Positions 4,712 to 34,671 of a DNA stretch of 64,000 nucleotides are shown in pieces; position 1 is the first letter of the stretch; the number at the start of each line of letters is the position of its first letter. Source of the DNA: an uncultured Ectothiorhodospiraceae bacterium (GTDB lineage Bacteria > Pseudomonadota > Gammaproteobacteria > JAABTG01); the NCBI GenBank assembly GCA_937867305.1, contig CALMKJ010000156.1, positions 12,011 through 76,010 of the forward strand, in the 5' to 3' direction. Below the pieces are notes generated by a model that searched no databases, was not told the origin of the DNA, and saw only the letters and a list, made by a program, of their open reading frames with translations. Both the position numbers and the translations under genes were made by a program.

Positions 4712-5154
4712 TCGGTCACCTCCTGCTGGTCGGGGCACACCCGGGCCACAGCCGGCAGGTCGCCGGTCAACACGTGACCGAACACGTCGCGGGCGTACCC
4801 GTGGGGTCGGTCGGTGAAGTGGAGCCGGTTCGGCGCCTCACCGTCACGCACGTACGAAGCCGGGTCGCCGAACTCCACGCCGGGCCGGTGGTGGTACACG
4901 CGGCGTTGCGCGTCAACGAACAGGTAGGTCTCCACCCGGTCGGTGCCGTTGTTGTACACGCGGGTCTCGTCGGTGGAGAACAGCCGCTTCACTTCGTACA
5001 GGCCCACCAGGACCGGTTCACCGGACTTGTCGAACTCGTAGCGCGACGACACGAGACGGAACGCCCACACGATCACCGGGTCTTCCGACCTGGTCAGCCG
5101 CAGCCCCACCGGGACCGGGGGTACCGGTACGTCGGCGGCGTGCTTGCCGGTCAC
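4708..5154 (-). CDS. hypothetical protein (about 148 aa)
   Basis: Track ORF 4708..5196; start moved to the internal GTG that forms a GTGA overlap with the stop of 5151..5390. Confidence 0.45.
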   Translation of the reverse strand: MTGKHAADVPVPPVPVGLRLTRSEDPVIVWAFRLVSSRYEFDKSGEPVLVGLYEVKRLFSTDETRVYNNGTDRVETYLFVDAQRRVYHHRPGVEFGDPASYVRDGEAPNRLHFTDRPHGYARDVFGHVLTGDLPAVARVCPDQQEVTE

Positions 5155-5390
5155 GAGTCCGACTCCGACGAACCGGCCGCGAACTGACGTGACCAAGCCT
5201 GGAACTCGGTGTACGTGCCGAACGGCCCGAACCTCTCCGGGTTCTCGACCCGGCCGCAGTCGACGTACTTGCCGCCCGGGAACCGCACCTGCATGCGGGG
5301 AGGCGTGTCACCGGGCACCGCCCTGAACAGCGTCACGACCGTGCCGCTCGGTAGAGAGTGGGAAGACGACCACACGTTAGGGGAGCTCAT
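5151..5390 (-). CDS. hypothetical protein (79 aa) sharing a C-terminal PERFGPFGTYTEFQAWSRQFAAG motif with the downstream dNTP hydrolase-like protein
   Basis: Internal ATG of track ORF 5151..5426. The motif is paralogous to PERYGPVGRTSAEFKAWGRRFSAG at the C-terminus of 5377..6216. Confidence 0.4.
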   Translation of the reverse strand: MSSPNVWSSSHSLPSGTVVTLFRAVPGDTPPRMQVRFPGGKYVDCGRVENPERFGPFGTYTEFQAWSRQFAAGSSESDS

Positions 5391-6216
5391 AGTCGTCCTG
5401 TGTGCGGGAAACGTCGTCGGATGCACCCGGCGCGTTCTCCGGCGTGACCGCCTCCGGCCAACCTGCGGAGAACCGTCGGCCCCAAGCCTTGAACTCGGCG
5501 GACGTGCGGCCGACAGGACCGTACCGCTCCGGTCCTTTGCCGGGCCGGTCGTCGAACTCGGGCCGGTTCTCCACGAACCAAGCCAGGTTGAGTGCGTGCC
5601 AGGCGACCGCGATCATGTGCTTGACCGCCATCTCAGGGTCGTAGTCCTCCCCCATCCAGAACAAGCTCCCGTGCCGCAGCATCGCCGAGTACGAGCTAGA
5701 CCACGGGTACCCGCGCTTCCAGTTGGGTGCGCCCGCCACATCGTCCGGGTACTTCATCTGGCCCCGTCCGTACAGGACGGCCAACTCCCACAACGGGCCC
5801 GCCGGGATCAGGTCGATCCGTGCCTCCTTCATCGACTTCGACCCACCCGAAGCGCTCGTGACCAGGCGTTCGCCGCGCTCCCGAGGAGTCGCCGGTGCAG
5901 GTGCCGGTGCGACCGGGGCGGGAACCGGGCGCAGGTCGGTGCGGTCAGTCGGTGCCGGGGTCGAAGTGACGAACACGTCCACGTCGAGCAGTTCACCGGT
6001 GAGAGCGTCCAGGACCGGAAGCCCGATACCCAACGCCAACACGACCTCGCCGCGGGCGCCACGGGAGTCCTCCCAACGAGGCAGGACCGCGACCGCGTCC
6101 GCATCCGTCGTGATGTGTGCGGCGTACCGGGAAAACTCGCCCCGTAGGTCGAACCCGATGGTGTCCGGGTGCTCCTTGCCGGTGCAGCCGGCACGGGAGA
6201 TCTGGCGCCCCGTCAC
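5377..6216 (-). CDS. dATP/dGTP diphosphohydrolase-domain (MazG-like nucleotide pyrophosphohydrolase) protein; start uncertain (alternative ATG at 5832 gives a 152-aa domain-only protein)
   Basis: Block KEARIDLIPAGPLWELAVLYGRGQMKYPDDVAGAPNWKRGYPWSSSYSAMLRHGSLFWMGEDYDPEMAVKHMIAVAWHALNLAWF matches the phage/plasmid dATP/dGTP diphosphohydrolase N-domain pattern. A long GTG start gives a GTGA overlap; the alternative ATG has a GGTGGG RBS. Confidence 0.5.
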   Translation of the reverse strand: MTGRQISRAGCTGKEHPDTIGFDLRGEFSRYAAHITTDADAVAVLPRWEDSRGARGEVVLALGIGLPVLDALTGELLDVDVFVTSTPAPTDRTDLRPVPAPVAPAPAPATPRERGERLVTSASGGSKSMKEARIDLIPAGPLWELAVLYGRGQMKYPDDVAGAPNWKRGYPWSSSYSAMLRHGSLFWMGEDYDPEMAVKHMIAVAWHALNLAWFVENRPEFDDRPGKGPERYGPVGRTSAEFKAWGRRFSAGWPEAVTPENAPGASDDVSRTQDDYELP

Positions 6217-8312: not shown

Positions 8313-10832
8313 TCAGAACACCCGGTCGAGCACCTGCGCGTCCTCGTTCACCTGGCCGGCAGCAGCCAACGCCGCCGCCGCGGCCTCACGCCTCTTGATG
8401 TCCTCGGGGTTCGTCGACGACATCGCCAAGAACTCAGGCGACAAGTCAACCCGGACCGGAACAGCACGACCCGACAAGTCGACGTAGATGCACACCGACC
8501 CTCGCAACACCTCGCCGGTCACCGGGTCACGCAACGCCTTCATCGACATCGGGTTCGGCGAGACCGCCTGAGCCGAGTTACCGCCGATCGTGGCCTTCGC
8601 CATGATCCGCTGCAAACGGGCCGGTGTCGGATCCAACTTCCACAACTCGCACGCCGCCCGCGCCTCCTTCTCGTCCTCGATCGACAAGACCAGACCACGG
8701 GAGATGTACCCGGCCAACCCGGCACTCACCGCGTCGGAGACCCGCTGAGTGAACAGCATCGGGAGCACACCCTGGCTCCGGGCCAGACGCCCCAGCCGCT
8801 CCACCTCGGCACGACCAGCCCCCAAGAACACCCACGCCTCGTCGAGCATGACCACGCCCTGACGGCCGGTCAACGCCATCGCAGACCCGAACACCATCAT
8901 CCGGACCACCGCCAACGCGACCCGTTGCGGCAACGTCTGGTTCAGCGCACCCGGCTCCGGCAGATCCAGGTAGGCGTCCCCCACCTTGATCAGGGTGATC
9001 CCGCTCGACGTACGCAGACCCTCCGTGCTCGGGTTCACCCCGACGATCGCCCGGAACATCGGCGACGACGACGCCAACGCCTCCACCCGCGACACCATCT
9101 CCGGCGGCATCGGGATCTGGTCCCGCACCGCGATCGCCAACGCCTGACCGATACACGTCGCGCCCTTGTCGACCCCGTAGGACAGGGCGTGCGTCAACGG
9201 CACCTCCATGTCGGCGACCGCGGTACCCCACGGGTTGATCGCCATGAGCATCGACGCGGCCAGCTCGGCGCCCACCTCCTTCTTCGCAGAGAACCGGATC
9301 GGGTCGAAGATGCCGTCCGCGGTCACCAGCGTGTCCAACGACGCGACCTGGCCACCGGCCGCCAACACCACAGAGGAATGGTCGGAACCCATCTTCGGGT
9401 CCACGATCACGACAGGGCGACCCATCCGGGCGTACTGGTCGGCCAACGACAACAGCACCTGGGTCTTGCCGGACCCGGTCGCACCCGCACACAACGCGAT
9501 CGGCAGCCCGTCGCTCGTCGACGCGGCCGTCGGGGACAGGTACGCCGGCTGCCGGTCCCGTTCAGTGAACCCGAGCAACGCACCGTCCGGGTCGCCCACG
9601 AACGACAACGACGGGATACCCGAACACGCGACCGTCTGAGCCGGCAGGTCATGCAGATGCGGGTTCGCGCGCAGGTGACTGCACAACCACGTCTCCGCCA
9701 TCGCACCGTGCTGCCGGAAGTCCATCATCGCCAACCGGGCCGGTGCGTCCGCGGACAACACCTGGTGCACGTCACGGAACTGACCGTCGAACCCGGCCAC
9801 GATCGACGCCGACGCCAACGTCGGAGGAGGGTTCCCGCCGGTGGCGTACAACCCTTCGACGCCTTCAAGAAGCGCCATCATCTCGACCTGCTCCGCGCGC
9901 TCCATCTTGCCCTGCTTGGTGCGCTCGTTGATGTCGTCGATGAACCGCTTCCGCTGCCGGCGCAGCTCCTCACGGGTGATCGCACCCGGTTCGATGACAC
10001 CGCGGATCGACACGGCCAACGCCCCCGCACCGACCAGGTCGGCCACCCAATGCGACGTCGGGTCGGTCGCCTTCACGAAGGACAGGTCCAGGTCCTGGAC
10101 GGACGCGAACGTGACCGCGTGCGTGCCCGGGACGGTCGTGTGCGTCCACGACGCACACTGGTCCACCCCCGCCTCGTCGGCCATCCGCACCGACTCGACC
10201 GACTCGAACACGTGCACGTGGTCCGGGTGGACCAGCATCGGGGTGTCGGCGTAGTACCCGTGGTTCCACCACGCGTTCGCCAACCGGACGTCGTCAGCGG
10301 ACACCTTCACCAGACCAGACCGGTCCATCGCGGCGTTCATCCGCTCCGTGTCCTCGTCGAAGTCCGACAACGGCACGTTCCCAGCCACCACCGTCTCCAC
10401 GACCGAGTTGACCGCGTCCAAGAGACCACCACCGCCGAGCTTGTCGCGCAACCGCACCCCGACGAGCAGCAGCCGGCGGTCGATCGCGGTGTTCGGGTAC
10501 CGCTGCCGCAGCACCTCGGACAAGGCGTGGCCACGTCCCGGCGCGAACCGCTGAGGCACGTTCACCAGCAACACATGCACCTCGCGGTACGAACCACGAG
10601 ACGTCGCCCGACGCCGCATCCCGACGTTCACCTGGCCGGCCAGCTCCTCGAAGAACGACAGCAGCGGCTCAGCCGCCGTCAACGACTCGGCCGGGTTGCG
10701 GGCATCGACGACTGGGCCCAACGGCACCGCCCGGTACATCCACAACGCCCCGTTGACGCCTTGGAGTCGCCCGTCGGCGAGCCGGGACCGCAACGTCGTC
10801 GGCCAGGCCGGCTGCTCGGAAACCTCGATCAC
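8313..10832 (-). CDS. VirB4/TrbE/CagE-like conjugative ATPase (839 aa)
   Basis: Walker A CAGATGSGKTQ followed by VVIVDPKMG; Walker B VVMLDEAWVFLG (the DEAW hallmark of VirB4-type ATPases); size and domain order fit the family. Confidence 0.6.
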   Translation of the reverse strand: MIEVSEQPAWPTTLRSRLADGRLQGVNGALWMYRAVPLGPVVDARNPAESLTAAEPLLSFFEELAGQVNVGMRRRATSRGSYREVHVLLVNVPQRFAPGRGHALSEVLRQRYPNTAIDRRLLLVGVRLRDKLGGGGLLDAVNSVVETVVAGNVPLSDFDEDTERMNAAMDRSGLVKVSADDVRLANAWWNHGYYADTPMLVHPDHVHVFESVESVRMADEAGVDQCASWTHTTVPGTHAVTFASVQDLDLSFVKATDPTSHWVADLVGAGALAVSIRGVIEPGAITREELRRQRKRFIDDINERTKQGKMERAEQVEMMALLEGVEGLYATGGNPPPTLASASIVAGFDGQFRDVHQVLSADAPARLAMMDFRQHGAMAETWLCSHLRANPHLHDLPAQTVACSGIPSLSFVGDPDGALLGFTERDRQPAYLSPTAASTSDGLPIALCAGATGSGKTQVLLSLADQYARMGRPVVIVDPKMGSDHSSVVLAAGGQVASLDTLVTADGIFDPIRFSAKKEVGAELAASMLMAINPWGTAVADMEVPLTHALSYGVDKGATCIGQALAIAVRDQIPMPPEMVSRVEALASSSPMFRAIVGVNPSTEGLRTSSGITLIKVGDAYLDLPEPGALNQTLPQRVALAVVRMMVFGSAMALTGRQGVVMLDEAWVFLGAGRAEVERLGRLARSQGVLPMLFTQRVSDAVSAGLAGYISRGLVLSIEDEKEARAACELWKLDPTPARLQRIMAKATIGGNSAQAVSPNPMSMKALRDPVTGEVLRGSVCIYVDLSGRAVPVRVDLSPEFLAMSSTNPEDIKRREAAAAALAAAGQVNEDAQVLDRVF

Positions 10833-13413: not shown

Positions 13414-15825
13414 TCAGCCGGTGACGGCCTGCGGGCGGGACGGGGCAGCGAGAACAGCCCACGGGGGCGTGGTCGGGGCGTCGGCCTCGTACAGCCGGTG
13501 CGCCGCCAACGCCAGCGTGCGGATGTGCTTGGTTCCCAGCGCCACCCACGCGTCCCACGCGGCGGCGTCCTGACCGAACGGCAGCGGGTGCGTCTCGATG
13601 AACGACCGCAGCAGGCCACGGAGCCGCATGTTCAGCCCGTTCATCCACGACGACGAACCGGACAGCTCGTGCTGGGTCGGGCGCAGCATCACCGCGAACG
13701 TCTGCGACAGACCGTCCAGCGCGTCCTTCGACAGCGCCACGTCGGCCTTCACGATCTCCTCGTAGGCCAGCGAGACCATCCCGAACACGGCGGTCGCCGC
13801 GAAGCTGTTGCCGTTCAAGAGTCCGCGCGACTCAGGCTCCCAAGCCTTGTCCTCGGAAAACACGTGCTCACTCATCATGGCTCCTACTGCGGCCTCGACC
13901 GCGACTGGTGGGGTGGAACTGACCTTGTTGTGTGCGGAACCGTCCGGTTCATGCACCGTGTCGGCCGCCGAACCGAAGTCCTCTTCGACATAAGTCGGCA
14001 CCTCGACCCGCAACGGGCGAGCCACCGGGATCCGGAAACTGCCTTCCGGTGCGGCGTTGCCGGTCCGGTCGGTCAGACCAGCGGCTTTCGCGGCCGGGCA
14101 TGTGTTCACCAACGGGCACCACCCGCACAGCGGACCCGTCTTCGTCGGGAACGACGCCTCGGACTCGAACCGTTTCAAGTCGGCCCACGCCACCTCGAAG
14201 CCGTCCAACGTCTTCGACATGTACGGCCTGCTGATTGCGGCGTCCCGCGACTTCCCGACCGCCGTGTAGTACAGCCGGGCCTTCACGGGGCGAACCCCGG
14301 TGTCGTTGAACAGCGCCTCGTCGTACAACCGCATCTGGTCGCCGTGGTCGTCGCCGTAGAACTTCATCTTGTCCCGGGGCGGCATCTTCCCGGTGTTGTG
14401 CGTCGGAACCATCGTGGGCCCGCACAGGTACAACGAGTCGAGTGCGTCGACCTGGATGCACTGCGTCGGCACCGGCTGAGCCAGGCGCATCGAAGTGATG
14501 GTCCGGTGCACGGGCACAAGAGCCGGTTCGGTTGCCGTACTGACCCCCGGCACTTCAAGCGGGATGACCCCGGTCGGGTAGAACGCCACCAGGTGACGGC
14601 GACCGCACGGTCGAACCATCGACACCCCGAGGCTGGCGACCAGCTCGACCACCAGGGCCATCAACGCTTCGTCGGTGGAGACGAACCCGGCACCACCGAA
14701 CTCCGCGTCCCAATGCCCGCGCGCGTCCATCAACCCTTGCAGCAGCGCGATCCGCTGGGTCCGGGAACCCCGCAGGTACAGGTTCCGGATCTCATCGTCC
14801 CCGCACACGTCCGGGACCACGTCGTCCACGGACGTGCCTGCGGACCCCAACCGGACCCCGGTCACCCGTGGGTCCAACGGCAGGTCGGCGTCCGGCAAGT
14901 CCAACGCGGAAGGGTTCGACACCGTGATGGTGCCGTACTCCCCGTCGTCGTGACGCCGGCACAGCATCTCGAACAGCGTGTCCGCGTCCACCACCGACGT
15001 CACCGGTACAGGCCCGGCGCCCCGGTCCTCGATCTGCCACAGGTGCACGTTGTCGCACACCACGCGGGCACCGTCGGAGAACACGATCTCGTAGCACGGG
15101 CGGTGGTGGACCTGAGACTTCAACACCACCTCGGTCGGGGTGCCGTCCGAGCCGAGCACCTTGTCGCCCACCTGCAGCTCCCCCATCGTCGACCAGCCGG
15201 TCGGCGTCGGGATGGGGGTGTCGAGGGCCAGACCCTTGTAGTCGACGATGGCGACCCCTTCGGACCCGTCCGGCAGCGTCACGTGGTCGAGACGGTCGAT
15301 GTACCCGACGAACGGGATGCCCCGCACCGCCGAGTTCGCGGTGAACCCGACCTCGATCGCCTTCACCTGGACGTGCCGCGGGTCTTCGATGTCCCACAGG
15401 CCAGCCATCCGTTGATGGACCAGCCCGTGCCAGTTGGCTCGTTTCGCCAGCGTGGCCGGGTCGCCGGCAGGCCACAGCCGAAGCTTGTGCGCCTCCAGCA
15501 GCCGCATCGCCTCGTCGAAGCTGCGCTTGAAGTACGGCAGGGCGAACAAGTCCTCGAAGATCTTGTGGACCGCGTCCCCCAACGGGGCGGCCGCCAACGG
15601 GTCCTCGTGCCGCGGCAGCAGCCGGTCGGCGGCCCACCGTGACGGGCACCCGCTCATCGCCTTCGCGGTCGACGGTGACAACGCGGACCGCGCCACGACC
15701 CGGATCGCCTCGTCGTTGAACATGAGACGGTCGCCGTCCCACGACGCGACCAGGCGCAGGTCCGGCTTCTCAGCCGACGACCCACAGGTAGGCGCAGGGG
15801 TAGCCGCATCGGTCGGGGTGTTCAC
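13414..15825 (-). CDS. Cas4/RecB-family PD-(D/E)xK exonuclease (Fe-S, Cys4) interrupted by an intein with a LAGLIDADG homing endonuclease
   Basis: Exteins carry an N-terminal Cys (MSGCPSRW), a VAIVDYKG...TGK nuclease motif split by the insertion, and a C-terminal CGWCPLVNTC (C-x2-C-x5-C). The insert runs from ...LALDTPIPTPTGW... through LYLRGSRTQRIALLQGLMDARGHWD (LAGLIDADG block) to ...LYLCGPTMVPTHN, followed by Thr at +1. It has no Cys or Ser at intein position 1, which is class-3-like. GTG start lies 6 nt after class-2 motif GTGGCACAGG. Confidence 0.6.
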   Translation of the reverse strand: MNTPTDAATPAPTCGSSAEKPDLRLVASWDGDRLMFNDEAIRVVARSALSPSTAKAMSGCPSRWAADRLLPRHEDPLAAAPLGDAVHKIFEDLFALPYFKRSFDEAMRLLEAHKLRLWPAGDPATLAKRANWHGLVHQRMAGLWDIEDPRHVQVKAIEVGFTANSAVRGIPFVGYIDRLDHVTLPDGSEGVAIVDYKGLALDTPIPTPTGWSTMGELQVGDKVLGSDGTPTEVVLKSQVHHRPCYEIVFSDGARVVCDNVHLWQIEDRGAGPVPVTSVVDADTLFEMLCRRHDDGEYGTITVSNPSALDLPDADLPLDPRVTGVRLGSAGTSVDDVVPDVCGDDEIRNLYLRGSRTQRIALLQGLMDARGHWDAEFGGAGFVSTDEALMALVVELVASLGVSMVRPCGRRHLVAFYPTGVIPLEVPGVSTATEPALVPVHRTITSMRLAQPVPTQCIQVDALDSLYLCGPTMVPTHNTGKMPPRDKMKFYGDDHGDQMRLYDEALFNDTGVRPVKARLYYTAVGKSRDAAISRPYMSKTLDGFEVAWADLKRFESEASFPTKTGPLCGWCPLVNTCPAAKAAGLTDRTGNAAPEGSFRIPVARPLRVEVPTYVEEDFGSAADTVHEPDGSAHNKVSSTPPVAVEAAVGAMMSEHVFSEDKAWEPESRGLLNGNSFAATAVFGMVSLAYEEIVKADVALSKDALDGLSQTFAVMLRPTQHELSGSSSWMNGLNMRLRGLLRSFIETHPLPFGQDAAAWDAWVALGTKHIRTLALAAHRLYEADAPTTPPWAVLAAPSRPQAVTG

Positions 15826-23459: not shown

Positions 23460-23890
23460 GTGCTCGTGGCCAACTCCGTGCTGCTTTGCCACTTTGCCAC
23501 GATTGGCCCGACCGAAGTGGCGAACAGCTCCAAGCCCCTGACCTGCGGAAACAGTCCCCAGACGGGGTCGTTTTGCCAGTCTTGCCAGTTTGCCACCCGG
23601 TGGGGGATACACATATGAGGGGGAGGTATATACCTGCACCTGTGGGTATACACCTATGAGACCCCATACGTACTACTACCTCTACCTAAAGTGGTAAGAG
23701 ATCTCTACATACCTACTAAAAGGGCCTCTGACCTGCGGAAACGTGTTTGCCACTTTTTTCGGCCGTTCGTGACAAAGTGGCAAGATCCGGGGTGCTGAGC
23801 GTAAAGAACAGCCCAGAAACCGGGGGTTCTTGCCACGAACCGTTCTCGCTCGTGGCAAGACCCGGCCACCCGACTGGTGTGTGGTGGCAC
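23460..23890. repeat. putative replication origin / divergent control region: multiple direct and inverted TTGCCAC repeats, duplicated GACCTGCGGAAAC, and a locally AT-rich segment with GGTATA(T/C)ACC repeats
   Basis: tttgccactttgccacg, ttttgccagtcttgccagtttgccac, gtttgccactttttt/gacaaagtggcaaga (inverted), and cttgccacgaaccgttctcgctcgtggcaag (inverted). A relatively AT-rich segment (about 23600..23740) is unusual for this high-GC window. The region lies between divergent operons, directly upstream of the primase-helicase gene. Confidence 0.4.
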
Positions 23891-23899
23891 AGGGTGAAC

Positions 23900-26800
23900 A
23901 TGACCGACGACACCCAGCGCCCCGACCAGCACACCGACAAGGCTGCGACGGAGCCCACCTCTCCCCCAGCCGTCACCCCTGACGACCACGACGCCACCGC
24001 CAACGCTCTGGCCGAGGAAGTGAAGGAGCGGCTCGCCCGAGTCGAGTCCGACACCCGCAGCCTCGAAGGCGACCTGGACGAGATGCTGAAGTGGCCCCAG
24101 CCGTGGGCCATCGCCGACTACGTCCCGTCCGGGGTGTTCGGCAAAGGAGCCAAGAAGCTCTCCGAGAGCTACGTCGCCCCGCTGGTCGCCGCCGCTCGCG
24201 GGTACCGGGAGTTCGACGAGTCCAACGTGGCCGACATCGGTCCCGCGTTCGGGATGACCGACCGTCGCTCTCAGCAGATGCGACGCGTCTACGACGCGGC
24301 CGGACGCTCCGGCGTGCTCATGATGCCTTGGTTCGCCGTCGACACCGTGGTCGCCGCGGAGACCCGCGCCGGCGCAGCCAAGCACGACTCGGTCCAGTTC
24401 CGCCCCGGCACCCTGCCGCCGGAAGTCGAAGGGGTCAAGCAGCGCAAGTACGAGTTCGTCTCAGGCGACCAGACCCCCATCGCGGTCCACCCGTCCATCC
24501 CCGCATCCTGGATCGAAGCCTCCGGGAAGGTCCTGCTCGCCGAAGGGCTCCTCAAAGGCGACGCGGCCCTGACCGGGTACCTGCTCGACCACGGGTTCAC
24601 CAAGGACGAGCTGTCGTACGACGGTGACGGGGACGCACGCAAGCGTCTCACCGCGATGCTGAACACGATCCCCGACGACGAGCGCTTGACGATCTTCACC
24701 ATGGCGGGCGTGTGGAACTGGAAGCAGAACCACGAATGGAACGCGCTGCGGCTCATAGACCGCGAGGTGTGGCTCGGGGTCGACGGCGACGTCGCCACCA
24801 AGCCGGGCGTCTACAAGGCCACCCACGCCCTGTGGAACTACCTGACCGAGAAGAAGAAGGCGGACGTCAAGCTCCTGTCGCCGGTCATCTCGATCGAGAA
24901 CAGCCACGGTGAGACCGACAAGGTCGGCATCGACGACTACCTGGCCAAGTACGGGACCTGGTCCCAGCTCCTCGGGTGCCTGGCCGACGTGCTGCCCCCG
25001 CAGCCGGCCGACCTGCAAGCCGAGAAGGGCGAGGCCCGGATCGACTCGGACGGCTGCTCGTCGTCGCGGTACGTCATCACCGAGGAAGACTCGGTGACCG
25101 GCAAGGCACTCGACGGCAGGTGGGTGCCGTTCCTGCCGATCGGTGGACGCATCCACGCGATGGTCGCCGACCGGATCCCGACCGACAAAGAGCTCAGCAC
25201 CGGGGCGTTCGGTGCCGACGTGAGCGAAGACTCCATCTCCTGGAACGTCGAGATCGAGATCCGGTTCCGCAACGGGGTCGGTGAGGTCGAGTCGTACATG
25301 GTCTCCGGCCCCCACCACATCTTGAACTTCCTGCCCGAGAAGTGGCACGACAAGGGAGCCCACATCCCCGGCCCGGTCATGGTCCACCCTGAATGGCCTC
25401 CGCGCGGCAAGGACGCCGAGTCGTGGGTGAAGGCGGTCAAGTCGTACGCGCCGGAGCGGATGGTGCGCCGCACCCGGTGGGCGTGCATGGGCTGGGTCCC
25501 GGTGCCCGGCGGGGTCCCCGTCTACGTCGCCGGCAACCACGTCATCGGCGGCTCCGACGCCGAGTCGGACAACGAGGAGGTGCTGCCCGGTGTGACCGAC
25601 GACCTGTTGGAGCGTGCCGCGGCGTTCGGTGCCGGACCCGACTCCGGTCTCACGTTCGACTCCCAGGAGTACCGCGAGGAGGTCCGGGTCGCGATCGAGG
25701 CGGTCATGAAGGCGTACGTGACCAACAACGTGTGGACGAACCGGGCGAACGCCGCCGTGGTCGTGGCCGCCGGACTGCGCCCGGCACTGCCGATCCGGCC
25801 GAAGGCTGTCATGTACTTCGTCGGCCCGAAAGGCACCGGCAAGACGTTCTCCGGCAACGCCGTCATCGCGTTCTGGCAGTCCGCCCCCGGTTCGCTCATC
25901 CCGGTTCCGGGGTCCGCGAAAGACACCTACGCCTCGATGGAGCTGAACACGGCCAGGTCCAACATCTGGGTGGTCGACGACCTGGCGCCTGCGTCGTCGC
26001 GCCGGCAGTCCGAGGACGAGAAGGACAAGATCGGTTCCCTCATCCGCAACACGTTCAACGGTGCCGCCAGGGGCCGGTCGAACGCCAACATGGAGTCGCG
26101 GAAGAAGAACAACCCGCGGGCGCTGCTCGTCATCACCGCTGAGAACGAGCCGACGGTGTCCTCCGAACTGGACCGGCTCGTGCTGTGCGACATCGGGTAC
26201 CGGTCGCTGAACCCCGAGACGTGGCCCACCGACGCGCTTCGCGACATGGTCGAGTCCGGCGGGCGACCCGGTGCCGGTGCACCGGCCCTGGTGTCCCAGG
26301 CGATGGTGAAGTACCTGCGCTGGTGCGCGGCCCAGCCTGGGTCGTCGTGGGCGTCGGTGTACGAGCAGGTGCAGCAGTCACGTGCCACCGTCGAAGGTCA
26401 GGCCAAGCTGGCGTTGGAGACCCTCGGTGGTCGTCCGCGTCACGCGGACCTGTCCGCCGACCTGACGTTGTCCTTCCACTGGCTGCGCAGGATCGCGATC
26501 GAGGTCGGGTGCTCTGATGAGGTACTGCGGTTGCTCAACTCCGTCGACGGTCTGCCGAACGACGTGATCGGCCTGGTCGGTACCACTGCTCGGGAGAACC
26601 AGGAGACCTCGCCGGGTCGCGCCCTGGTCAACGCGATCACGTCGGTGCTGCGACGCGGACGCGCCCACATCGTGTCCGCGGACGACCCGTCGGTGCCGCC
26701 GTGCGACCCCGAGACCGAGCGCAACCAGTTGTCCGCGCTCGGCTGGGTCAGCAACGGAGGCAACAACAAGGACTGGCGGCCTGCGCACGGTTCGGAGCCG

Positions 26801-27112
26801 ATCGGGTGGCTGGTGCGGGAGAAAGGCGAGCCGGTCATCATCTTCGACCCGCACTCGGCGTTCCTGATCGCCCAGCAGCACAGCAGTCTCATCCCGCACG
26901 GTCAGGGCCAGCGCATGTCGTGGGCCTCGGTCACCGGTGAAGGGCTCGGCATCGAAGACATGCTGCGTACCGACAAGTCCGGCAAGCGCATCAACTCAGC
27001 CCGGAAGACGACGAACGGGACGCTCTACATGGGGTACCCGGTGGCGTTGAGCCAGATCCTGGACGGCGGCGCGACCCGTGACATCGACGGCGAAGACGAG
27101 GACGACGACTGA
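23900..27112 (+). CDS. replicative primase-helicase (TOPRIM-type primase domain fused to a P-loop, SF3/D5-like helicase domain)
   Basis: TOPRIM-like VWLGVDGDVATKPGVYKA (DxD); Walker A MYFVGPKGTGKTFSG; Walker B-like IWVVDDLAP. Start is the ATG of MTDDTQ, 6 nt after class-2 motif GTGGTGGCACAGG. Confidence 0.6.
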   Translation: MTDDTQRPDQHTDKAATEPTSPPAVTPDDHDATANALAEEVKERLARVESDTRSLEGDLDEMLKWPQPWAIADYVPSGVFGKGAKKLSESYVAPLVAAARGYREFDESNVADIGPAFGMTDRRSQQMRRVYDAAGRSGVLMMPWFAVDTVVAAETRAGAAKHDSVQFRPGTLPPEVEGVKQRKYEFVSGDQTPIAVHPSIPASWIEASGKVLLAEGLLKGDAALTGYLLDHGFTKDELSYDGDGDARKRLTAMLNTIPDDERLTIFTMAGVWNWKQNHEWNALRLIDREVWLGVDGDVATKPGVYKATHALWNYLTEKKKADVKLLSPVISIENSHGETDKVGIDDYLAKYGTWSQLLGCLADVLPPQPADLQAEKGEARIDSDGCSSSRYVITEEDSVTGKALDGRWVPFLPIGGRIHAMVADRIPTDKELSTGAFGADVSEDSISWNVEIEIRFRNGVGEVESYMVSGPHHILNFLPEKWHDKGAHIPGPVMVHPEWPPRGKDAESWVKAVKSYAPERMVRRTRWACMGWVPVPGGVPVYVAGNHVIGGSDAESDNEEVLPGVTDDLLERAAAFGAGPDSGLTFDSQEYREEVRVAIEAVMKAYVTNNVWTNRANAAVVVAAGLRPALPIRPKAVMYFVGPKGTGKTFSGNAVIAFWQSAPGSLIPVPGSAKDTYASMELNTARSNIWVVDDLAPASSRRQSEDEKDKIGSLIRNTFNGAARGRSNANMESRKKNNPRALLVITAENEPTVSSELDRLVLCDIGYRSLNPETWPTDALRDMVESGGRPGAGAPALVSQAMVKYLRWCAAQPGSSWASVYEQVQQSRATVEGQAKLALETLGGRPRHADLSADLTLSFHWLRRIAIEVGCSDEVLRLLNSVDGLPNDVIGLVGTTARENQETSPGRALVNAITSVLRRGRAHIVSADDPSVPPCDPETERNQLSALGWVSNGGNNKDWRPAHGSEPIGWLVREKGEPVIIFDPHSAFLIAQQHSSLIPHGQGQRMSWASVTGEGLGIEDMLRTDKSGKRINSARKTTNGTLYMGYPVALSQILDGGATRDIDGEDEDDD

Positions 27113-29597: not shown

Positions 29598-29903
29598 GAG
29601 GACCCGGCCCGGCACGACCGGCACGTGTTCACCGCCACCGCCCTGCTGACCAACCTGCGCGCCGACATGGCCGGCCGGCCCGGGATGCCCCTGTTCAGTC
29701 CTGACGCGCAGGCACGGCTGTCGACCGAAGCTCTCGCTCACGCGGTCCTCGCGCTCGACTCGACCCTCACCCGGTTGCTCGACCAGCACCCCGCCGCACG
29801 CAAACCGTCGCAAACTGAACAGTCCAGGACCCGCACCGCATCCGAAGGTAAAGATTGAGCCCCAGCCCGATCAGGGCACCCGTTCCCCGCACACCGACAC
29901 GAC

Positions 29904-30116
29904 ATGACCACCCAACACCCGCCGACCATCACCCGCCCCGCCTGGAACCTCACCACGCCACAACCCGACACCGTCGCCACCCGCCCCGTCCGAACCACCA
30001 ACCCGGTGCACGCCACCCCGCTGCCCGTCCTCGTCGACCGGCACTTCGCGTCACCGCGTCCCCGGCACTGCACCACCCACCAGGAGCTCACCAGGGCACC
30101 CGCCCTCACCCGTTGA
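29904..30116 (+). CDS. hypothetical small Pro/Thr-rich protein (70 aa)
   Basis: Track ORF; ATG 9 nt after class-1 motif CCCCGCACACC; low-complexity, so confidence is low. Confidence 0.3.
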   Translation: MTTQHPPTITRPAWNLTTPQPDTVATRPVRTTNPVHATPLPVLVDRHFASPRPRHCTTHQELTRAPALTR

Positions 30117-30184
30117 GCCGACAGGCTCCCCTCCCACCGGGCGACAGCCCGGACCCGACCCGACAGGGCATCTAAATAAGCTCG

Positions 30185-30365
30185 CTGGCGCTCGCTTGCG
30201 TGGCGGGTTGCGGCGTTGTGCGGCTGGTCGTTTCGTGGCTCGGCGTGTTCGTGGCGTTGCTTCGTGGTGGGGCGGTTCGTCTGGCTTGTTGTTTCTGGGT
30301 TCTTGTCGTTGTCTGTGCGGTGCTTGGTGACTTCTGAGGTTGGTGTGTTCACAGTGACCCCCGTG
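30185..30365 (+). repeat. GT-rich, A-poor noncoding tract with about 6 tandem degenerate repeats ((G)TTCGTGG(C/T)G-like, 13-15 nt period) upstream of an FtsK-like gene; candidate cis-acting transfer or binding locus
   Basis: Strong strand-compositional skew (almost no A; G and T dominate). Repeats cgtttcgtggctcg / gtgttcgtggcgt / gcttcgtggtgg / ggttcgtctggc / gttgtttctggg, flanked by two GAACGTTC palindromes (about 30378 and about 30505). Confidence 0.4.
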
Positions 30366-30544
30366 GGCCCCGTTTCGGTATCCGTTGAACGTTCCGTCAC
30401 CGGTTCGGGCCCTCATCGACCCCTGATCGCCCGGAGGGCGAAGTGTTGCGGGGGCGGGGGCGAGGTGTTGTGCGGGGTTCAGTCCGGGTGAACTGTCCGG
30501 TTATCGAACGTTCCGGGGTGCTGTTCGGCGCGTGTCGGTTGCGC

Positions 30545-33109
30545 ATGGTGTCGGGCATGAGGATCCCTGACCCGACGGTGTACGCGTTGACTCGTGTGAC
30601 GGGTCCGAACACGTTGCCGGCGACGATCGACCAGCGTGCGAACGCGTTCGCGACGACGACTGAGGACTGTGCGTGGGCGTCGTTGTGGATGACTCGTGAC
30701 GAGTCGGGGGTGCGCACGTACCTGGTGTTGGACGGCCCGGAAGGGAGCGTGTCGTCGGCGTCGGTGTCGTTGGCTCACGCGGTGGGTGCTCGTGCGGAGG
30801 TGGTGGAGTCGTTCCCGTCGCATCTGGCGCAGACTCCGGGGTTGGCCCGGATGGTGGTTCATGAGACTCGTTCGGTTGCGCGGCAGCCGATGGTGGGGAC
30901 GGATCCGGCGGAGATCGCACGCATCATGGCGGTGCATCTGCGGGTGGGCGACTGGGTGGGTGTGAGTGTTCGCCGTCCGACGGACAAGGAGTCGGTGCGC
31001 AACCAGGACTGGATCCAGCACCGGTTGACGGTGCAGGTGGGTGCGCACCAGTCGCAGTCGCGTGACGCACGCACCGTGTCGTTCTGGGCGGGGTCGTCGA
31101 GTAACCGTGCGGCCCGGTCGTTGTTGGCGCGAGCTGCGTCGGCGATGCAGGGGTTCGACTTGCAGGTGAAGGCGGAGTCGGTGACGCCGTGGGCGGGTGC
31201 GCGGGGTTGGTTGGTTGCGTCGTTGGCGGGTGTCGCGGTGTCGGTGGGGGCGGTGTTCGTGCCGAACGTTCCGTCGTCGGTGGCGTGGGGGTCGGTTGCC
31301 GCGGCGGCGGCCTTGGCCTTGGTCGGGGTGTTGCGTCTGGTGGGGGTGTTGTCGTGCCCGTCGTCGGTGGCACGGGACTTGGTGTCGGTCGGGGTGTTGC
31401 CGGTTCCGCCGAAGCGTCGTGGCCGGCCTGCTCCTCCTCGGGAGGCGGAGACGAGGCGGGACGGGAAGAAGGTTGCGGAGCGCCCTGGCGACTACCCGTT
31501 GCATCGCGCGGCGTTTCTGGTGCAACCGTCGATCTTCGTCGGGTTGGCGTCTCCGCATGCGGGGACGGATGCGGGTGCGGCGTCGGCTCAGCGTCGTTCG
31601 GTGCCGATCCCGATGACGGGCCGGATCGGTCCGTTGGTCGGGTTCGACGGGGACACACCCGCGTACTTGTCGAACACGGCGTCGTACGCGGGAGTGGCGG
31701 TGGTGGGTCGTCCGGGGTCGGGCAAGTCGGTGTTGGTGCGGTCGTTGTTCGGGTGGGCGTGCATGGAGCGGGTGCACCCGTCGGGGTTGCCGTCGGCACC
31801 GGGGGCGAACAACACGCTGATCGCGTTCGAGTCGAAGGACCATCACGCGGTGGAGGCGTACCGGGCGTGGTCCGCCGCGGCCGGTGACAAGCTGCTGGTG
31901 GTCGAGCTGGGAGACCCGGCGGCGTACGGGATCGACTTGTTCGCGACGCCTGGTTCGGTTGCGCAGCGGGCTGAGGCGTTCGTGAACGCGATGGTGTACG
32001 CGTTCGGTGACGGTGACATCCAGAACCGTTCGTTCGACGTGTTGAAGCGGATCTACACGGGTGCGTTGGCGTTGGACGAGCACCGGGACGTGTTGGACGG
32101 GGTGCCGTGGATCGACGGCGCGTCAGCGAGCGTGAACCATTTCGCGGATGTGCTGATCGGCAACCACGGCGACCCGCGGGCGGTCCAGTTGGCCCAGGAG
32201 GTGATGACCCGGTCTCGGGTTCCGGAGACGTGGTCTCCGAGTTTGGCGTTGGCTGCGGAGGCGCTGGCGTACTTGTTCGAGTCGCGGACCGAGGCGCAGC
32301 GCCGGTCGTTGGTGGAGGCGGCGCAGAACAAGGTGTCCCAGTTCGCGGCGTTGGAGCACTGGTGGGCTCCGACGAAACGGAAGGTGACGTGGGACCAGGT
32401 CTTGTCGACGACGCCGGGGCAGCGGGCTGTGGTGATCAACACGGGTGCGTCGGCGTCGGGCCCGCCGGTCGAGGACCGGTTGACCGAGCTGATGAGTGCC
32501 TTGGTCATGTTCACGTTGCAGCAGGCGATCCGCCGGTTGTGTGCCGGGTGGGAGGACGAGGGCCGGTCGGTGTCGATCTTCTCTGACGAGCTGAGCTTGT
32601 TGGCGGGCACGTCGGAGAAGGTGATCGCGTGGTTGAAGGAGCAGGGTCGGGCGTTCGGGGTGCGCCCGGTGTTGGCGACTCAGCGTCCCGCCCAGTTGCC
32701 GCCGAAGGTGCGGACGGTGATCTTGAACTTCGGCACCCTGATCTGCTTCAACCAGGATTCGGTCACGACGGCCGAGGAGGTGTCGCGTGAGATGTTCGGG
32801 GCCGACGGCCCGATCGAGGCAGCCGAGATCATGCACTTGCCGGACTACCACGCGATGGTGCGTGCGTATGTGGGGAAGGAACGGCAGCCGGCGTTCACGA
32901 TGAAGGCGGGCAACTTCGAGGCGGATCGTGCCGCGGCTGTGGAGTCGCAGGGGTACTCGGTACCGAACACGGTTCCTGGCGTGTCGCCGTTGCCTGTTCC
33001 GGCACCACCGGCACCGGTCGCGGACCCTGTTCCGGTGGTGCCGTTGGACCCGGCTGATGCTGAGGTGGACGCGAACTGTTACGGCGACCTGGACGGCGAC
33101 GGCCGGTGA
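30545..33109 (+). CDS. FtsK/SpoIIIE-family ATPase with two TM helices (coupling-protein/TraB-like), 855 aa
   Basis: Walker A VAVVGRPGSGKSVLVRSL; Walker B-like VSIFSDELSLLAG; a TM pair (WLVASLAGVAVSVGAVFV / AAALALVGVLRLVGVL) precedes the ATPase. The start ATG lies inside a class-3 motif TTGCGCATGGTGTCGGGCATG. Confidence 0.6.
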   Translation: MVSGMRIPDPTVYALTRVTGPNTLPATIDQRANAFATTTEDCAWASLWMTRDESGVRTYLVLDGPEGSVSSASVSLAHAVGARAEVVESFPSHLAQTPGLARMVVHETRSVARQPMVGTDPAEIARIMAVHLRVGDWVGVSVRRPTDKESVRNQDWIQHRLTVQVGAHQSQSRDARTVSFWAGSSSNRAARSLLARAASAMQGFDLQVKAESVTPWAGARGWLVASLAGVAVSVGAVFVPNVPSSVAWGSVAAAAALALVGVLRLVGVLSCPSSVARDLVSVGVLPVPPKRRGRPAPPREAETRRDGKKVAERPGDYPLHRAAFLVQPSIFVGLASPHAGTDAGAASAQRRSVPIPMTGRIGPLVGFDGDTPAYLSNTASYAGVAVVGRPGSGKSVLVRSLFGWACMERVHPSGLPSAPGANNTLIAFESKDHHAVEAYRAWSAAAGDKLLVVELGDPAAYGIDLFATPGSVAQRAEAFVNAMVYAFGDGDIQNRSFDVLKRIYTGALALDEHRDVLDGVPWIDGASASVNHFADVLIGNHGDPRAVQLAQEVMTRSRVPETWSPSLALAAEALAYLFESRTEAQRRSLVEAAQNKVSQFAALEHWWAPTKRKVTWDQVLSTTPGQRAVVINTGASASGPPVEDRLTELMSALVMFTLQQAIRRLCAGWEDEGRSVSIFSDELSLLAGTSEKVIAWLKEQGRAFGVRPVLATQRPAQLPPKVRTVILNFGTLICFNQDSVTTAEEVSREMFGADGPIEAAEIMHLPDYHAMVRAYVGKERQPAFTMKAGNFEADRAAAVESQGYSVPNTVPGVSPLPVPAPPAPVADPVPVVPLDPADAEVDANCYGDLDGDGR

Positions 33110-34671
33110 ACGGTCAGCCGCAGGTGGTGCGCCGGCGCCCGTCGACCCCGGCCCCTGAACCGGTCCTGGCCCCCGCCCCGCCGGCACCGGTGCCTCCTCC
33201 CCCACCTGTTCCTGCCGCGGCTGCGGTCCGGGCACCAGTGGCGACGTCGAAACGGCCGGGCGTGTTCGAGCGGGTCACCCCGCCGGAGCGTCTGGTTCCG
33301 CCGGTTGACGCGTGGCGTCTGGCGGAGTTGCGGTCGGCGTGCGGGGATGAGGCGTTGGCGGCTCCGGCCCGGTTCGACCCGTACTGGGGCGGCATGTGGT
33401 CGGGTGGGTCGTCGGCGACGTGGGTCTCACACGGGTTGGCACGGTTGCAGCACGCGTCCGGGTTGGGGGCGTTCCCGGACGAGATGGTCGCGGACCGGGG
33501 CGAGGCGTTGGACCGGTTCATGCACCAGGCGTCGAAGTCGACGTACACGTTGAACGACCGGTTGTCGTTCCTGGGTGTGGTGCACGGGTGGCGCACGTGT
33601 AACGCCCAGCAGGTGGCGGCGATGATCGGGAACGCGTCGTTGGCGAAACCGACGAGCAAGGTGGCGACGGCGGCGTTCGCGTCCGGTCTGGTGGATCTGG
33701 CGGCCCCGTCGTTGTTGCGCCGCGGTCCGGTGTTCGGTCCGGAGTCGTTGTACCGACCGGGTCGGGTGGAGGCGTTCGAGTCGTTGAACGAACGGTTGAC
33801 GTGGGCGGAGTGGTTGTCGGTGACGGGTGGCCAGGCGTGGACGTCGGGCGGTCAGTTCGACCGGCACAACCTGTTGGCGACCGAGCTGGGTCTGCGGTTG
33901 GCCGAGTACACGGAGGTGGGCACCGTGTTGGGGGAACGGTTCTCCACGGTGGACTTGCTGACGGGGTCGGGGGTGGGCCGCGCCGAGGTCCGTGGCGACC
34001 GGCGTACCGCGGACATGGTGGTGGTGCGCGGCGACGGGATGCGGGTTGCGGTCGAGGTGACGGCGACGGTGTCCCCGTACTTCGACTCGAAGGTGGAACG
34101 GTGGGCCCGGTTGTTGGCGGAGTCCCCGTTCCCGGCGACCGGGTTGACGGTGGTGTTCCTGGTGGCTCAACCGGTCGATGACGTGGACGCGACCCGGTTG
34201 CGGTCGAAGACGTACCAGGCGGTGATGCGGGCGGTGCGCAAGCACCCTGGCGTGTCGGTGGACCCGACGGCGTTGCGGATCGGGGTGGCGACGTGGCGGG
34301 AATGGTTCCCGTCGGCGCACACCGCGTCGGAGGCGTTCTTGACGTTGCGGGCTCACCGCCCGGTCGACGGGTGGTCGGACGCGGACTTCCTGGACCCTGG
34401 GTCGGTTCCGTTCGCTGCCGCCGACCCGGCGTTGATGAGGGCCGTGTTCGACAACGCGTCGATGCTGGGTCAGACACCGTATTGGTTGCGTGAGCCGTCT
34501 CGGGCCCCGTCGTTGGCGCCGGAGCTGTTGGCTGCGAACGGGTTGGCTGCGGTGCCGGCGTTCCATGCGGGCCCGGACCCGGCGACTGGTCCGGTGGTGG
34601 ACACGACGGCGAGCCGCGGCGTGACGCCTGCACCGCGGTTGCCGAAACGGCTGCTCGGGTTGTCCGGGTGA
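33106..34671 (+). CDS. hypothetical protein with Pro-rich N-terminus (521 aa)
   Basis: GTGA overlap with the upstream stop; track ORF with normal composition after a Pro-rich leader. Confidence 0.45.
   Translation: MNGQPQVVRRRPSTPAPEPVLAPAPPAPVPPPPPVPAAAAVRAPVATSKRPGVFERVTPPERLVPPVDAWRLAELRSACGDEALAAPARFDPYWGGMWSGGSSATWVSHGLARLQHASGLGAFPDEMVADRGEALDRFMHQASKSTYTLNDRLSFLGVVHGWRTCNAQQVAAMIGNASLAKPTSKVATAAFASGLVDLAAPSLLRRGPVFGPESLYRPGRVEAFESLNERLTWAEWLSVTGGQAWTSGGQFDRHNLLATELGLRLAEYTEVGTVLGERFSTVDLLTGSGVGRAEVRGDRRTADMVVVRGDGMRVAVEVTATVSPYFDSKVERWARLLAESPFPATGLTVVFLVAQPVDDVDATRLRSKTYQAVMRAVRKHPGVSVDPTALRIGVATWREWFPSAHTASEAFLTLRAHRPVDGWSDADFLDPGSVPFAAADPALMRAVFDNASMLGQTPYWLREPSRAPSLAPELLAANGLAAVPAFHAGPDPATGPVVDTTASRGVTPAPRLPKRLLGLSG

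Follow-up and report, generated by a model that had tools for sequence, protein, structure and literature searches.

A conserved A-depleted non-coding module 5' of a coupling-protein-like ATPase gene, a candidate origin of transfer of actinobacterial conjugative elements

Described transfer origins and the locus compared with them

Among described transfer systems, the closest parallel to the locus considered here is probably oriT2, an origin of transfer (oriT) of the Enterococcus faecalis plasmid pAD1, with its MOBC relaxase TraX and its TraG-like protein TraW. Francia and Clewell reportedly found in 2002 that a large inverted repeat at oriT is common to pAD1 and pAM373, that the short direct repeats adjacent to it differ and set specificity, and that the locus lies between the relaxase gene and the TraG-like gene. 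This study concerns a tract nearly free of adenine on one strand, situated 5' of the gene for an 854-aa membrane ATPase in a 64,000-nt stretch of contig CALMKJ010000156.1 (hereafter the window), which is a conjugative element of an actinobacterium. The tract forms part of a non-coding module found at the same place in related elements, and the probability that this module is the origin of transfer of the element family, with the tract as its repeat-bearing arm, was put at about one in two.

MOBC relaxases belong to the PD-(D/E)XK superfamily, and TraX of pAD1 carries an N-terminal winged helix-turn-helix and binds five direct repeats (review PMC12857230). As at oriT2, the region studied here adjoins genes for a coupling-protein-like ATPase and for a protein with predicted winged-helix and PD-(D/E)XK folds, and a structured inverted-repeat element that is kept among relatives stands beside short direct repeats that are specific to each relative. 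The spacing is also alike, since the repeats lie tens of base pairs from the conserved element in both cases: those of the window are 55-105 nt 3' of an AT-rich box, and those bound by TraX are 70-120 bp from the nick site (PMC12857230). The differences are the host phylum and the nuclease, which has no similarity to Pfam, NCBIfam or PDB entries and is likened to TraX by its described architecture only. On these comparisons the module appears most like a MOBC-type oriT, and membership of that class is not claimed; what is observed here is a conserved hairpin and AT box together with repeats that differ between relatives, those of the window being few and statistically weak and the long relatives having a 12-nt period. 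To our knowledge, neither extreme A-depletion, tracts of up to 800 nt, a 12-nt period nor a GA/GNA hairpin has been reported for pAD1.

The origins served by HUH relaxases, such as those of R388, RP4 and RSF1010, provide a second comparison. Here too, a hairpin on the complement strand is followed within ~5-8 nt by a conserved T/A-rich sequence, a match of layout only, and the region heads the transfer operon, so that the transfer genes would be the last to enter a recipient. Unlike those systems, no relaxase family, HUH or other, was detected among the 30 open reading frames (ORFs) of the window scanned with Pfam, none was recognised on related plasmids by MOB-suite, and no match to a known nick-site consensus was established.

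A conserved module around the A-depleted tract

Thirty-four related loci were fetched (given L numbers below). Counting the window, the module was present upstream of the homologous ATPase gene, and on the same strand, in 27 loci from Arthrobacter, Curtobacterium, Brevibacterium, Nocardioides, Aeromicrobium and metagenomes; these span the Micrococcales, Propionibacteriales and other Actinomycetota, and are both plasmid-borne and chromosomal. It opens at its 5' side with one to three copies of a GGCG(A/G)(T/C)AGCC box, which are followed by an AT-rich box and a small hairpin; right at the hairpin begins an A-depleted tract, 110-800 nt in length, and then comes a palindrome with an AACGTT core. 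Long versions of the module (1-1.7 kb) continue with a mixed centre and then an inverted, T-depleted second arm ahead of the gene. Judged by this comparison, the tract of the window is the A-depleted arm of a compact local copy of the module (Table 1). No description of the module was found in the literature searched, and a search of plasmid DNA databases with the region gave no match.

The closest relatives, by identity of the ATPase, are L031 (62%), L027 (59%), L029 (57%) and L030, from Nocardioides sp. Leaf285 (48%), and L033 falls in the same group. This subfamily has the compact version of the module, with 380-470 nt from box to ATG and equal landmarks. The tract sequences of these closest relatives could not be aligned; what is kept is composition and short G/T motifs, in loci whose flanking proteins are 57-62% identical. 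The start context TTGGCGCATG is also conserved. In L027 and L029 the box has the GGCGACAGCC form and precedes the AT box by 10-25 nt, in L030 it reads GGCGTCAGCC, and the Arthrobacter-type loci carry one to three copies of GGCGRTAGCC at the equivalent place. Of the possible variants, GGCGRTAGCCGC with T or G at the variable position is absent from the window, and GGCGACAGCC is present. Plasmid pMP7017 of Bifidobacterium was considered as a relative and set aside, as it has another gene order and no comparable intergenic region. In L013 (Brevibacterium picturae) the box and hairpin (44 bits) were found at 3804-3845, some 2.2 kb from the ATPase gene at ~6001; the corresponding distance is ~0.8 kb in the sister loci L012 and L015, and the extra DNA of L013 could be an insertion.

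Table 1. Features of the window discussed in the text
Feature	Position	Strand	Remarks
VirB4-like AAA_10 ATPase	8313-10832		
PD-(D/E)XK protein	13414-15825		
C/A-rich, T-poor zone 5' of the AT box	29880-30168	+	defined by composition; belonging to the module uncertain
GGCGACAGCC box	30140-30149	+	single copy in the window of the GGCG(A/G)(T/C)AGCC box, exact match
AT-rich box CATCTAAATAAG		30169-30180	none	family consensus CCATATTAAGAG; aligned with 21 other loci
Mini-hairpin AGC-GA-GC-GCCA-GC-GA-GCT	30179-30196	-	GCCA loop on a 2-bp inner stem; tandem G.A between inner and outer stems
A-depleted, G/T-rich tract	30180-30345	+	A-free part 30180-30329; equivalent tract directly 3' of the hairpin in related loci
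Short degenerate direct repeats	30232-30285	+	TTCGTGG at 30232, 30248 and 30261, TTCGTCTGG at 30277
Palindrome 1, GTTGAACGTTCCG	30384-30396	none	GAACGTTC core; 10-mer GAACGTTCCG at 30387-30396
Second small hairpin CGCCC-GGA-GGGCG	30428-30440	+	GNA loop on plus strand; CTGATC before, GAAG after
Palindrome 2, GAACGTTCCG	30506-30515	none	30 nt upstream of the ATG; possible operator
Membrane ATPase, FtsK/HerA/T4CP superfamily, 854 aa	30545-33109	+	ATG at 30545
Predicted winged-helix and PD-(D/E)XK nuclease, candidate relaxase	33106-34671	+	GTG start overlaps the TGA of the ATPase gene (GTGA)
FtsK/SpoIIIE-domain protein, 1317 aa	36036-39989		

The lack of A to which the first-pass annotation of this DNA had drawn attention was borne out. 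The 150 nt of the A-free part are the longest A-free run of the window, and G (68) and T (59) make up most of positions 30185-30345, beside 32 C and 2 A. By our own arithmetic, with A at 15.4% window-wide, the chance that a given run of 150 nt lacks A is ~1e-11. It is unusual in bacteria for a strand to be almost wholly without one of the bases for hundreds of nucleotides. A strand without A can hold no stop codon, and neither strand can then hold a TANNNT hexamer or a palindrome containing A or T; deamination of an exposed strand would push composition towards G+T.

In a high-GC genome, A-free runs can stem from coding for membrane helices, and a coding test was therefore needed. Two further runs of this kind (80 and 105 nt, within 31185-31371) lie inside the ATPase gene, in a hydrophobic, transmembrane segment, and the other T-free runs of the window, at 48.7 and 50.9 kb, were dismissed as ordinary coding sequence. 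Across the tract, the G+C content of third codon positions (GC3) is 0.4-0.8 in all frames, compared with 0.83-0.97 for the flanking genes, and low GC3 in every frame means that the tract is non-coding. The make-up of the encoded peptide and the lack of conservation among relatives agree with this. That the tract is a gene for a small hydrophobic protein, or merely a chance swing in composition, is very unlikely: an A-free sequence is open in all frames, one ORF covers it (30216-30491, 91 codons from a TTG start), and the runs within the ATPase gene show that membrane segments can produce such composition, but the peptide is rich in W, C and R, the equivalent tracts vary in length and do not align even where the flanking proteins do, and the probability of such a run arising at any one position is that given above. 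An ORF conserved across homologues, which had been named beforehand as evidence against a cis-acting role, was not found, and the tract was rejected as coding sequence.

An RNA made from the tract had been suggested as an alternative. No positive support was obtained for a structured non-coding RNA on the sense strand, the fold z-scores being +0.2 and +1.9, and Rfam gave no match in the tract and only two chance-level matches (E >= 3), both elsewhere. Pairing of the C/A-rich zone (29880-30170) with the tract into one large hairpin was rejected for the window's subfamily (fold z = +0.2), as the best 24-nt complementarity between the two was equalled by 20-30 of 400-500 composition-matched shuffles and nothing comparable was seen in five relatives. 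The same zone holds a 70-aa ORF (29904-30116), rich in Pro and Thr and with a gene-like GC3 of 0.84-0.90; it has no similarity to the small ORFs (64-66 aa) at the equivalent place in L027, L029 and L030.

Hairpins, palindromes and repeats of the module

On the minus strand the AT box reads CTTATTTAGATG in the window and CTCTTAATATGG in the family. It is more conserved than the stem of the adjoining hairpin, which suggests sequence-specific recognition. A covariance model of AT box and hairpin, built from 13 loci with the window left out, had its best match in the 64-kb window (both strands) at 30165-30200 on the minus strand, with 15.3 bits and an E-value of ~0.03 by rough calibration, and it also matched the syntenic sites of held-out loci, including L027, L031, L033 and L030. 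In the family alignment of the hairpin 95.6% of cells are paired and five of the seven pairs have changed on both sides; none of 500 shuffles equalled this, and slid controls collapsed. Its build is the same throughout: two stems, the outer of 2-4 bp and the inner of 2-5 bp, are separated by a 2x2 internal loop, and the inner one is closed by a loop of 3-4 nt. The A-depleted strand has TC/TC in the internal loop without exception, which gives GA/GA on the complement, and the terminal loops TTC, TGC or TGGC correspond to GAA, GCA or GCCA on the complement.

Nearest-neighbour parameters favour the complement-strand form over the other in 18 of 22 loci. The window is among the four exceptions (-18.7 kcal/mol on the plus strand, -9.8 on the minus), its inner stem being shortened symmetrically, as in L020, L027, L029, L030, L031 and L033. 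The core in this subfamily is GC-GAA-GC, GC-GCA-GC or GC-GCCA-GC, flanked by GA/GA. The second hairpin is fully paired in six relatives, with compensatory changes in two of its five pairs, and 2 of 500 shuffles did equally well. The strand specificity of the stable forms argues that the module works, at least in part, as a single-stranded or extruded nucleic acid, and not only as a binding site in duplex DNA. An extreme form of the first hairpin was seen in L011 (4721-4765, minus strand), GC-GA-CC-GA-CCC-GA-CC-GA-GC-GCA-GC-GA-GG-GA-GGG-GA-GG-GA-GC, with five short GC stems split by four GA/GA loops and a stability of -22.1 kcal/mol against -11.2 on the other strand.

DNA mini-hairpins of the d(GCGAAGC) type, like tandem sheared G.A pairs, have exceptional stability, a point used here as a lead only. 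According to Hirao and co-workers, d(GCGAAGC) mini-hairpins are said to occur at single-strand origins of phages. The T-free strand might in that case be a priming or loading site, where very stable GNA-loop and tandem-G.A hairpins give entry to a primase or helicase after displacement or transfer of a strand. The strand-specific chemistry of the hairpins and the GCGAAGC and GCGCAGC cores of L030, L020 and L029 would suit such a role, but its basis is the general biophysics of such hairpins, the window has only one of them per strand, and no primase gene was identified nearby, so that this explanation appears quite improbable.

The minus-strand stability of the hairpin bears also on a complementary-strand non-coding RNA, which would run leftward from ~30350-30400 as a U-free, C/A-rich transcript and end at the minus-strand hairpin and the U-rich AT box (CUUAUUUAGAUG) as intrinsic terminator. 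Consistent with this, the minus-strand hairpin is stable and, in all loci, borders directly on the first T-containing stretch after 150-800 T-free nucleotides, and a transcript poor in U would presumably not be terminated too early at GC hairpins, of which the long versions have many. A consensus scan for intrinsic terminators gave none at the hairpin, whose minus-strand tail has ~5 T in 10. Against such an RNA, the tail also contains several A, and its sequence (TTAATATGG) is kept beyond what a U-tract needs; neither a promoter nor an Rfam family was predicted, and the minus-strand hairpin of the window is weak. Such a transcript is considered unlikely.

Two palindromes had been described as flanking the region. 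Both GAACGTTCCG 10-mers exist, but both lie 3' of the tract and so do not flank it. The sequence GTTGAACGTTC stands directly after the tract, at equal relative position, in the window and in L031, the closest relative, and CAACGTTCCG is found in L027, ~60 nt upstream of the ATG. The window contains four copies of GAACGTTC where ~2 are expected, a count reached by 19 of 100 shuffles; since there is no excess within the window, its significance comes solely from comparison with the relatives. The AACGTT core was seen nine times in homologous modules against ~2.8 expected (~3-fold, P ~0.003), and in the long versions its place is close to the centre of the dyad. The window, L001, L019, L027, L031 and L033 all have palindromes with GGAAC/GTTCC half-sites. 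A GTTCAC/GTGAAC motif at the end of the tract was discarded as a general feature, being confined to Arthrobacter-type loci.

These palindromes would also suit a regulatory role. The region may be the promoter, operator or long 5' leader of the ATPase/nuclease operon, with transcription starting near the AT box or after the tract and with GAACGTTC-type palindromes as operators of a dimeric regulator; the A-free stretch would then be a transcribed leader or spacer from which a -10 hexamer or stop codon is barred. In every case the module is immediately 5' of the operon and shares its strand, the half-site palindromes recur, with one 30 nt upstream of the ATG, and the second hairpin and the start context are kept, all of which fits. 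However, no sigma-70-type promoter was predicted, the aligned AT box shows no conserved TANNNT on either strand, the conserved TC/TC mismatches destabilise the first hairpin on the sense strand, and an untranslated leader of 0.4-1.7 kb conserved in composition alone would be unusual. A purely regulatory function is thought possible though doubtful, and the reading is compatible with an origin of transfer at the same place.

The repeats of the tract had been given as five to six tandem copies with a period of 13-15 nt. Three exact copies of TTCGTGG and one degenerate copy are present; neither that number nor the period could be confirmed, as Tandem Repeats Finder reported no TTCGTGG array in the tract and the best lag in autocorrelation (16, z = 2.4, 28 lags tested) is not significant. 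Over the whole window TTCGTGG occurs 20 times against 12.6 expected, without significant excess, and it was rejected on this ground as an element-wide polar motif. The short repeats differ among relatives, with TTCGTGG in the window, GTCGTTGCG in L027, and GTTTCGTG and TTGCGT in L029. A direct repeat of 19 nt with 79% identity was also noticed, with one copy near the start of the tract (30205-30223, GGGTTGCGGCGTTGTGCGG) and the other ~110 nt past its 3' end (30457-30475, GGGGCGAGGTGTTGTGCGG); both contain the TGTGCGG fragment remarked on earlier, and this may be chance.

In the long versions the T-depleted arm shares inverted 9-mers with the A-depleted arm beyond composition-matched shuffles in eight of nine cases (two examples are 25 shared 9-mers where shuffles gave 4.5, and 32 where they gave 3.7; such counts were reached by 0-3 of 300 shuffles). 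By this sharing, the long versions are large degenerate, imperfect dyads with arms of asymmetric composition; the window's subfamily has one arm only. In L016 the inverted matches are nested around a centre. There (4485-5700), and in eight other long versions, the gene-proximal T-depleted tract is an inverted degenerate copy, with shared motifs such as CGCCTGCGGCGG; the left arm of L016 also has an internal duplication of ~270 nt. Seventeen related tracts, among them L016:4485-5270, L001:6830-7255, L002:6470-7065 and L007:4608-5208, show a period of 12 nt (combined z of 7.6, 5.3 and 3.2 for lags of 12, 24 and 36), and in 11 of the 17 z exceeds 2. This period is unusual, has no ready explanation, and was not seen in the short tract of the window. 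Four 12-nt units ending in TCCG or ATCG were observed directly after the hairpin in L016.

Repeats near an FtsK-type gene had led the first-pass annotation to a model based on Streptomyces TraB, which recognises 8-bp TRS repeats in the clt locus. As in that system, the locus is non-coding, bears repeats, lies near a gene for an FtsK-superfamily ATPase and belongs to an actinomycetotal conjugative element. It is unlike it in that no 8-mer is conserved, TTCGTGG having just three exact copies, which relatives do not share; the ATPase is no TraB by NCBIfam; the hairpins are strand-specific; and transfer by TraB is independent of type IV secretion genes, whereas this element has a VirB4-like gene and its ATPase has homologues annotated with type IV secretion systems. 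The FtsK-orienting polar sequences (KOPS) that converge on dif are a related case, and the long versions of the module likewise have two strand-polar motif arrays converging on a central palindromic site, but the module is local (<2 kb) and not chromosome-wide, its motifs are small, non-conserved hairpins, and the version of the window is one-armed.

Taken as an explanation, a polar repeat array of the clt or KOPS kind would serve an FtsK/TraB-type translocase that reads it in double-stranded DNA; this could be the 854-aa ATPase or else the 1317-aa protein further downstream. It would account for the strong strand polarity of the tract, for the convergence of two arrays of the same motifs in the long versions, for the 12-nt period of related tracts, and for the FtsK/SpoIIIE-domain gene that is kept a few kilobases downstream. 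It is nevertheless improbable, given that repeats differ between close relatives, that TTCGTGG is not over-represented, that the NCBIfam plasmid_TraB model does not match the 854-aa protein and reaches 27.9 bits (cut-off 800) with the 1317-aa protein, that a VirB4-like ATPase is typical of single-strand transfer, and that the conserved hairpins have strand-specific, non-Watson-Crick features. With a predicted nuclease gene as neighbour as well, the TraB/clt model was left unsupported.

The ATPase and nuclease genes and the case for an origin of transfer

The gene 3' of the tract had been called an FtsK-like gene of 855 aa. An ATPase ORF does start at the expected place, with a Walker A motif and hydrophobic segments, but its FtsK_SpoIIIE match is below threshold, as are those to TrwB_AAD_bind, TraG-D_C, AAA_10 and HerA, and its homologues are annotated as type IV coupling proteins. 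In RefSeq these homologues appear as proteins of conjugative DNA transfer by type IV secretory systems, or as coupling proteins, and are carried by large plasmids of Arthrobacter, Pseudarthrobacter, Paenarthrobacter and Curtobacterium; among named organisms, Nocardioides has the closest homologues. By sequence the 854-aa protein is a divergent member of the FtsK/HerA/T4CP superfamily, a coupling-protein-like ATPase. MOB-suite typed as non-mobilizable all 16 plasmids on which a homologue was present, which means that neither a relaxase nor an oriT was recognised in them.

The ATPase gene is directly followed by the nuclease gene in at least seven of the eight related loci with gene calls that were examined. 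The product has no match in Pfam, NCBIfam or PDB sequences; in the numbering of its 477-aa form, D259, D266, E273 and K285 are invariant. Its structure was predicted with high confidence (pLDDT 89.8) as a winged helix and a restriction-endonuclease fold; the model matched the nickase N.BspD6I (7.6) and the nuclease Can2 (7.8) in fold, and a separate domain matched many winged-helix proteins of the ArsR, MarR and Z-alpha types. It is a candidate, on the strength of this model, for a new relaxase clade. A gene combining these two folds and overlapping the ATPase gene points to a nicking mechanism, that is, to an oriT.

From this neighbourhood, and from the module that precedes it, we infer an origin of transfer, and with it the partners of the DNA and the position and strand of a nick. 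The winged-helix/nuclease protein, as a candidate MOBC-like relaxase, would bind the lineage-specific repeats of the tract and the GGCGAYAGCC box, possibly with accessory proteins, and one strand would be nicked at either of two landmarks that are conserved. On the complement, the AT box directly adjoins the 3' side of the hairpin, and a nick in it would give the classical hairpin-then-nick layout; the transfer genes would then be the last to reach the recipient, as they are in classical systems. The alternative is the GAACGTTC palindrome, which lies at the opposite end of the tract and would be a fitting target for an enzyme with a restriction-endonuclease fold. From the ATPase the nicked strand would pass into the secretion system. 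A cis-acting transfer locus beside a DNA-translocase gene, as already put forward for this DNA, is therefore favoured as a general idea, with a module conserved 5' of the ATPase gene, though without the specifics of Streptomyces clt.

Several points weigh against an origin of transfer. The strict exclusion of A from one strand is accounted for by none of the readings, and the oriT model leaves the long versions, with tracts of up to 800 nt, a 12-nt period and an inverted T-depleted arm, unaccounted for. The hairpin of the window is degenerate, with an inner stem of 2 bp, and its covariance score is modest. The restriction-endonuclease fold is common to many nucleases that are not relaxases, and neither the region nor the nuclease has sequence similarity to any described oriT or relaxase. 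Regions of oriT often overlap promoters, which leaves room for a purely regulatory role. A bolder proposal, offered only tentatively, is that strand composition rather than sequence defines the element, and that the T-free strand of 110-800 nt, with its GNA- and GCCA-loop, tandem-G.A hairpins, is a new kind of cis element that acts single-stranded, as transfer DNA or as RNA, and that it would load, prime or terminate DNA processing by a clade of non-HUH, restriction-endonuclease-like relaxases of the Actinomycetota.

The question matters because large actinobacterial plasmids and islands with this ATPase gene are typed as non-mobilizable and have no known relaxase or oriT; the Arthrobacter, Curtobacterium and Paenarthrobacter plasmids found here are of 0.15-0.6 Mb. 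If the module is their oriT, then box, hairpin and A-depleted tract together would be a recognisable DNA signature of these elements, a concrete candidate relaxase would be at hand, restriction-endonuclease-type relaxases would extend to the Actinomycetota, and mobility would become testable.

Beyond the genes already discussed, the window encodes a ParA-like ATPase, an ECF sigma factor and an ArdC-like protein. A defence system was considered and rejected, PADLOC and PHROGs giving generic P-loop matches only. An ORF of 1121 aa (23747-27112) has a strong coding signal and no match in Pfam, NCBIfam, PHROGs or PDB sequences. A protein of 1317-1450 aa with an FtsK/SpoIIIE domain is kept a few kilobases downstream of the ATPase/nuclease pair, in the window as well as in L001 (13079-17443) and L030 (from 10291 onward), often after NERD or GNAT genes, and the family thus has two FtsK-superfamily ATPases besides VirB4.

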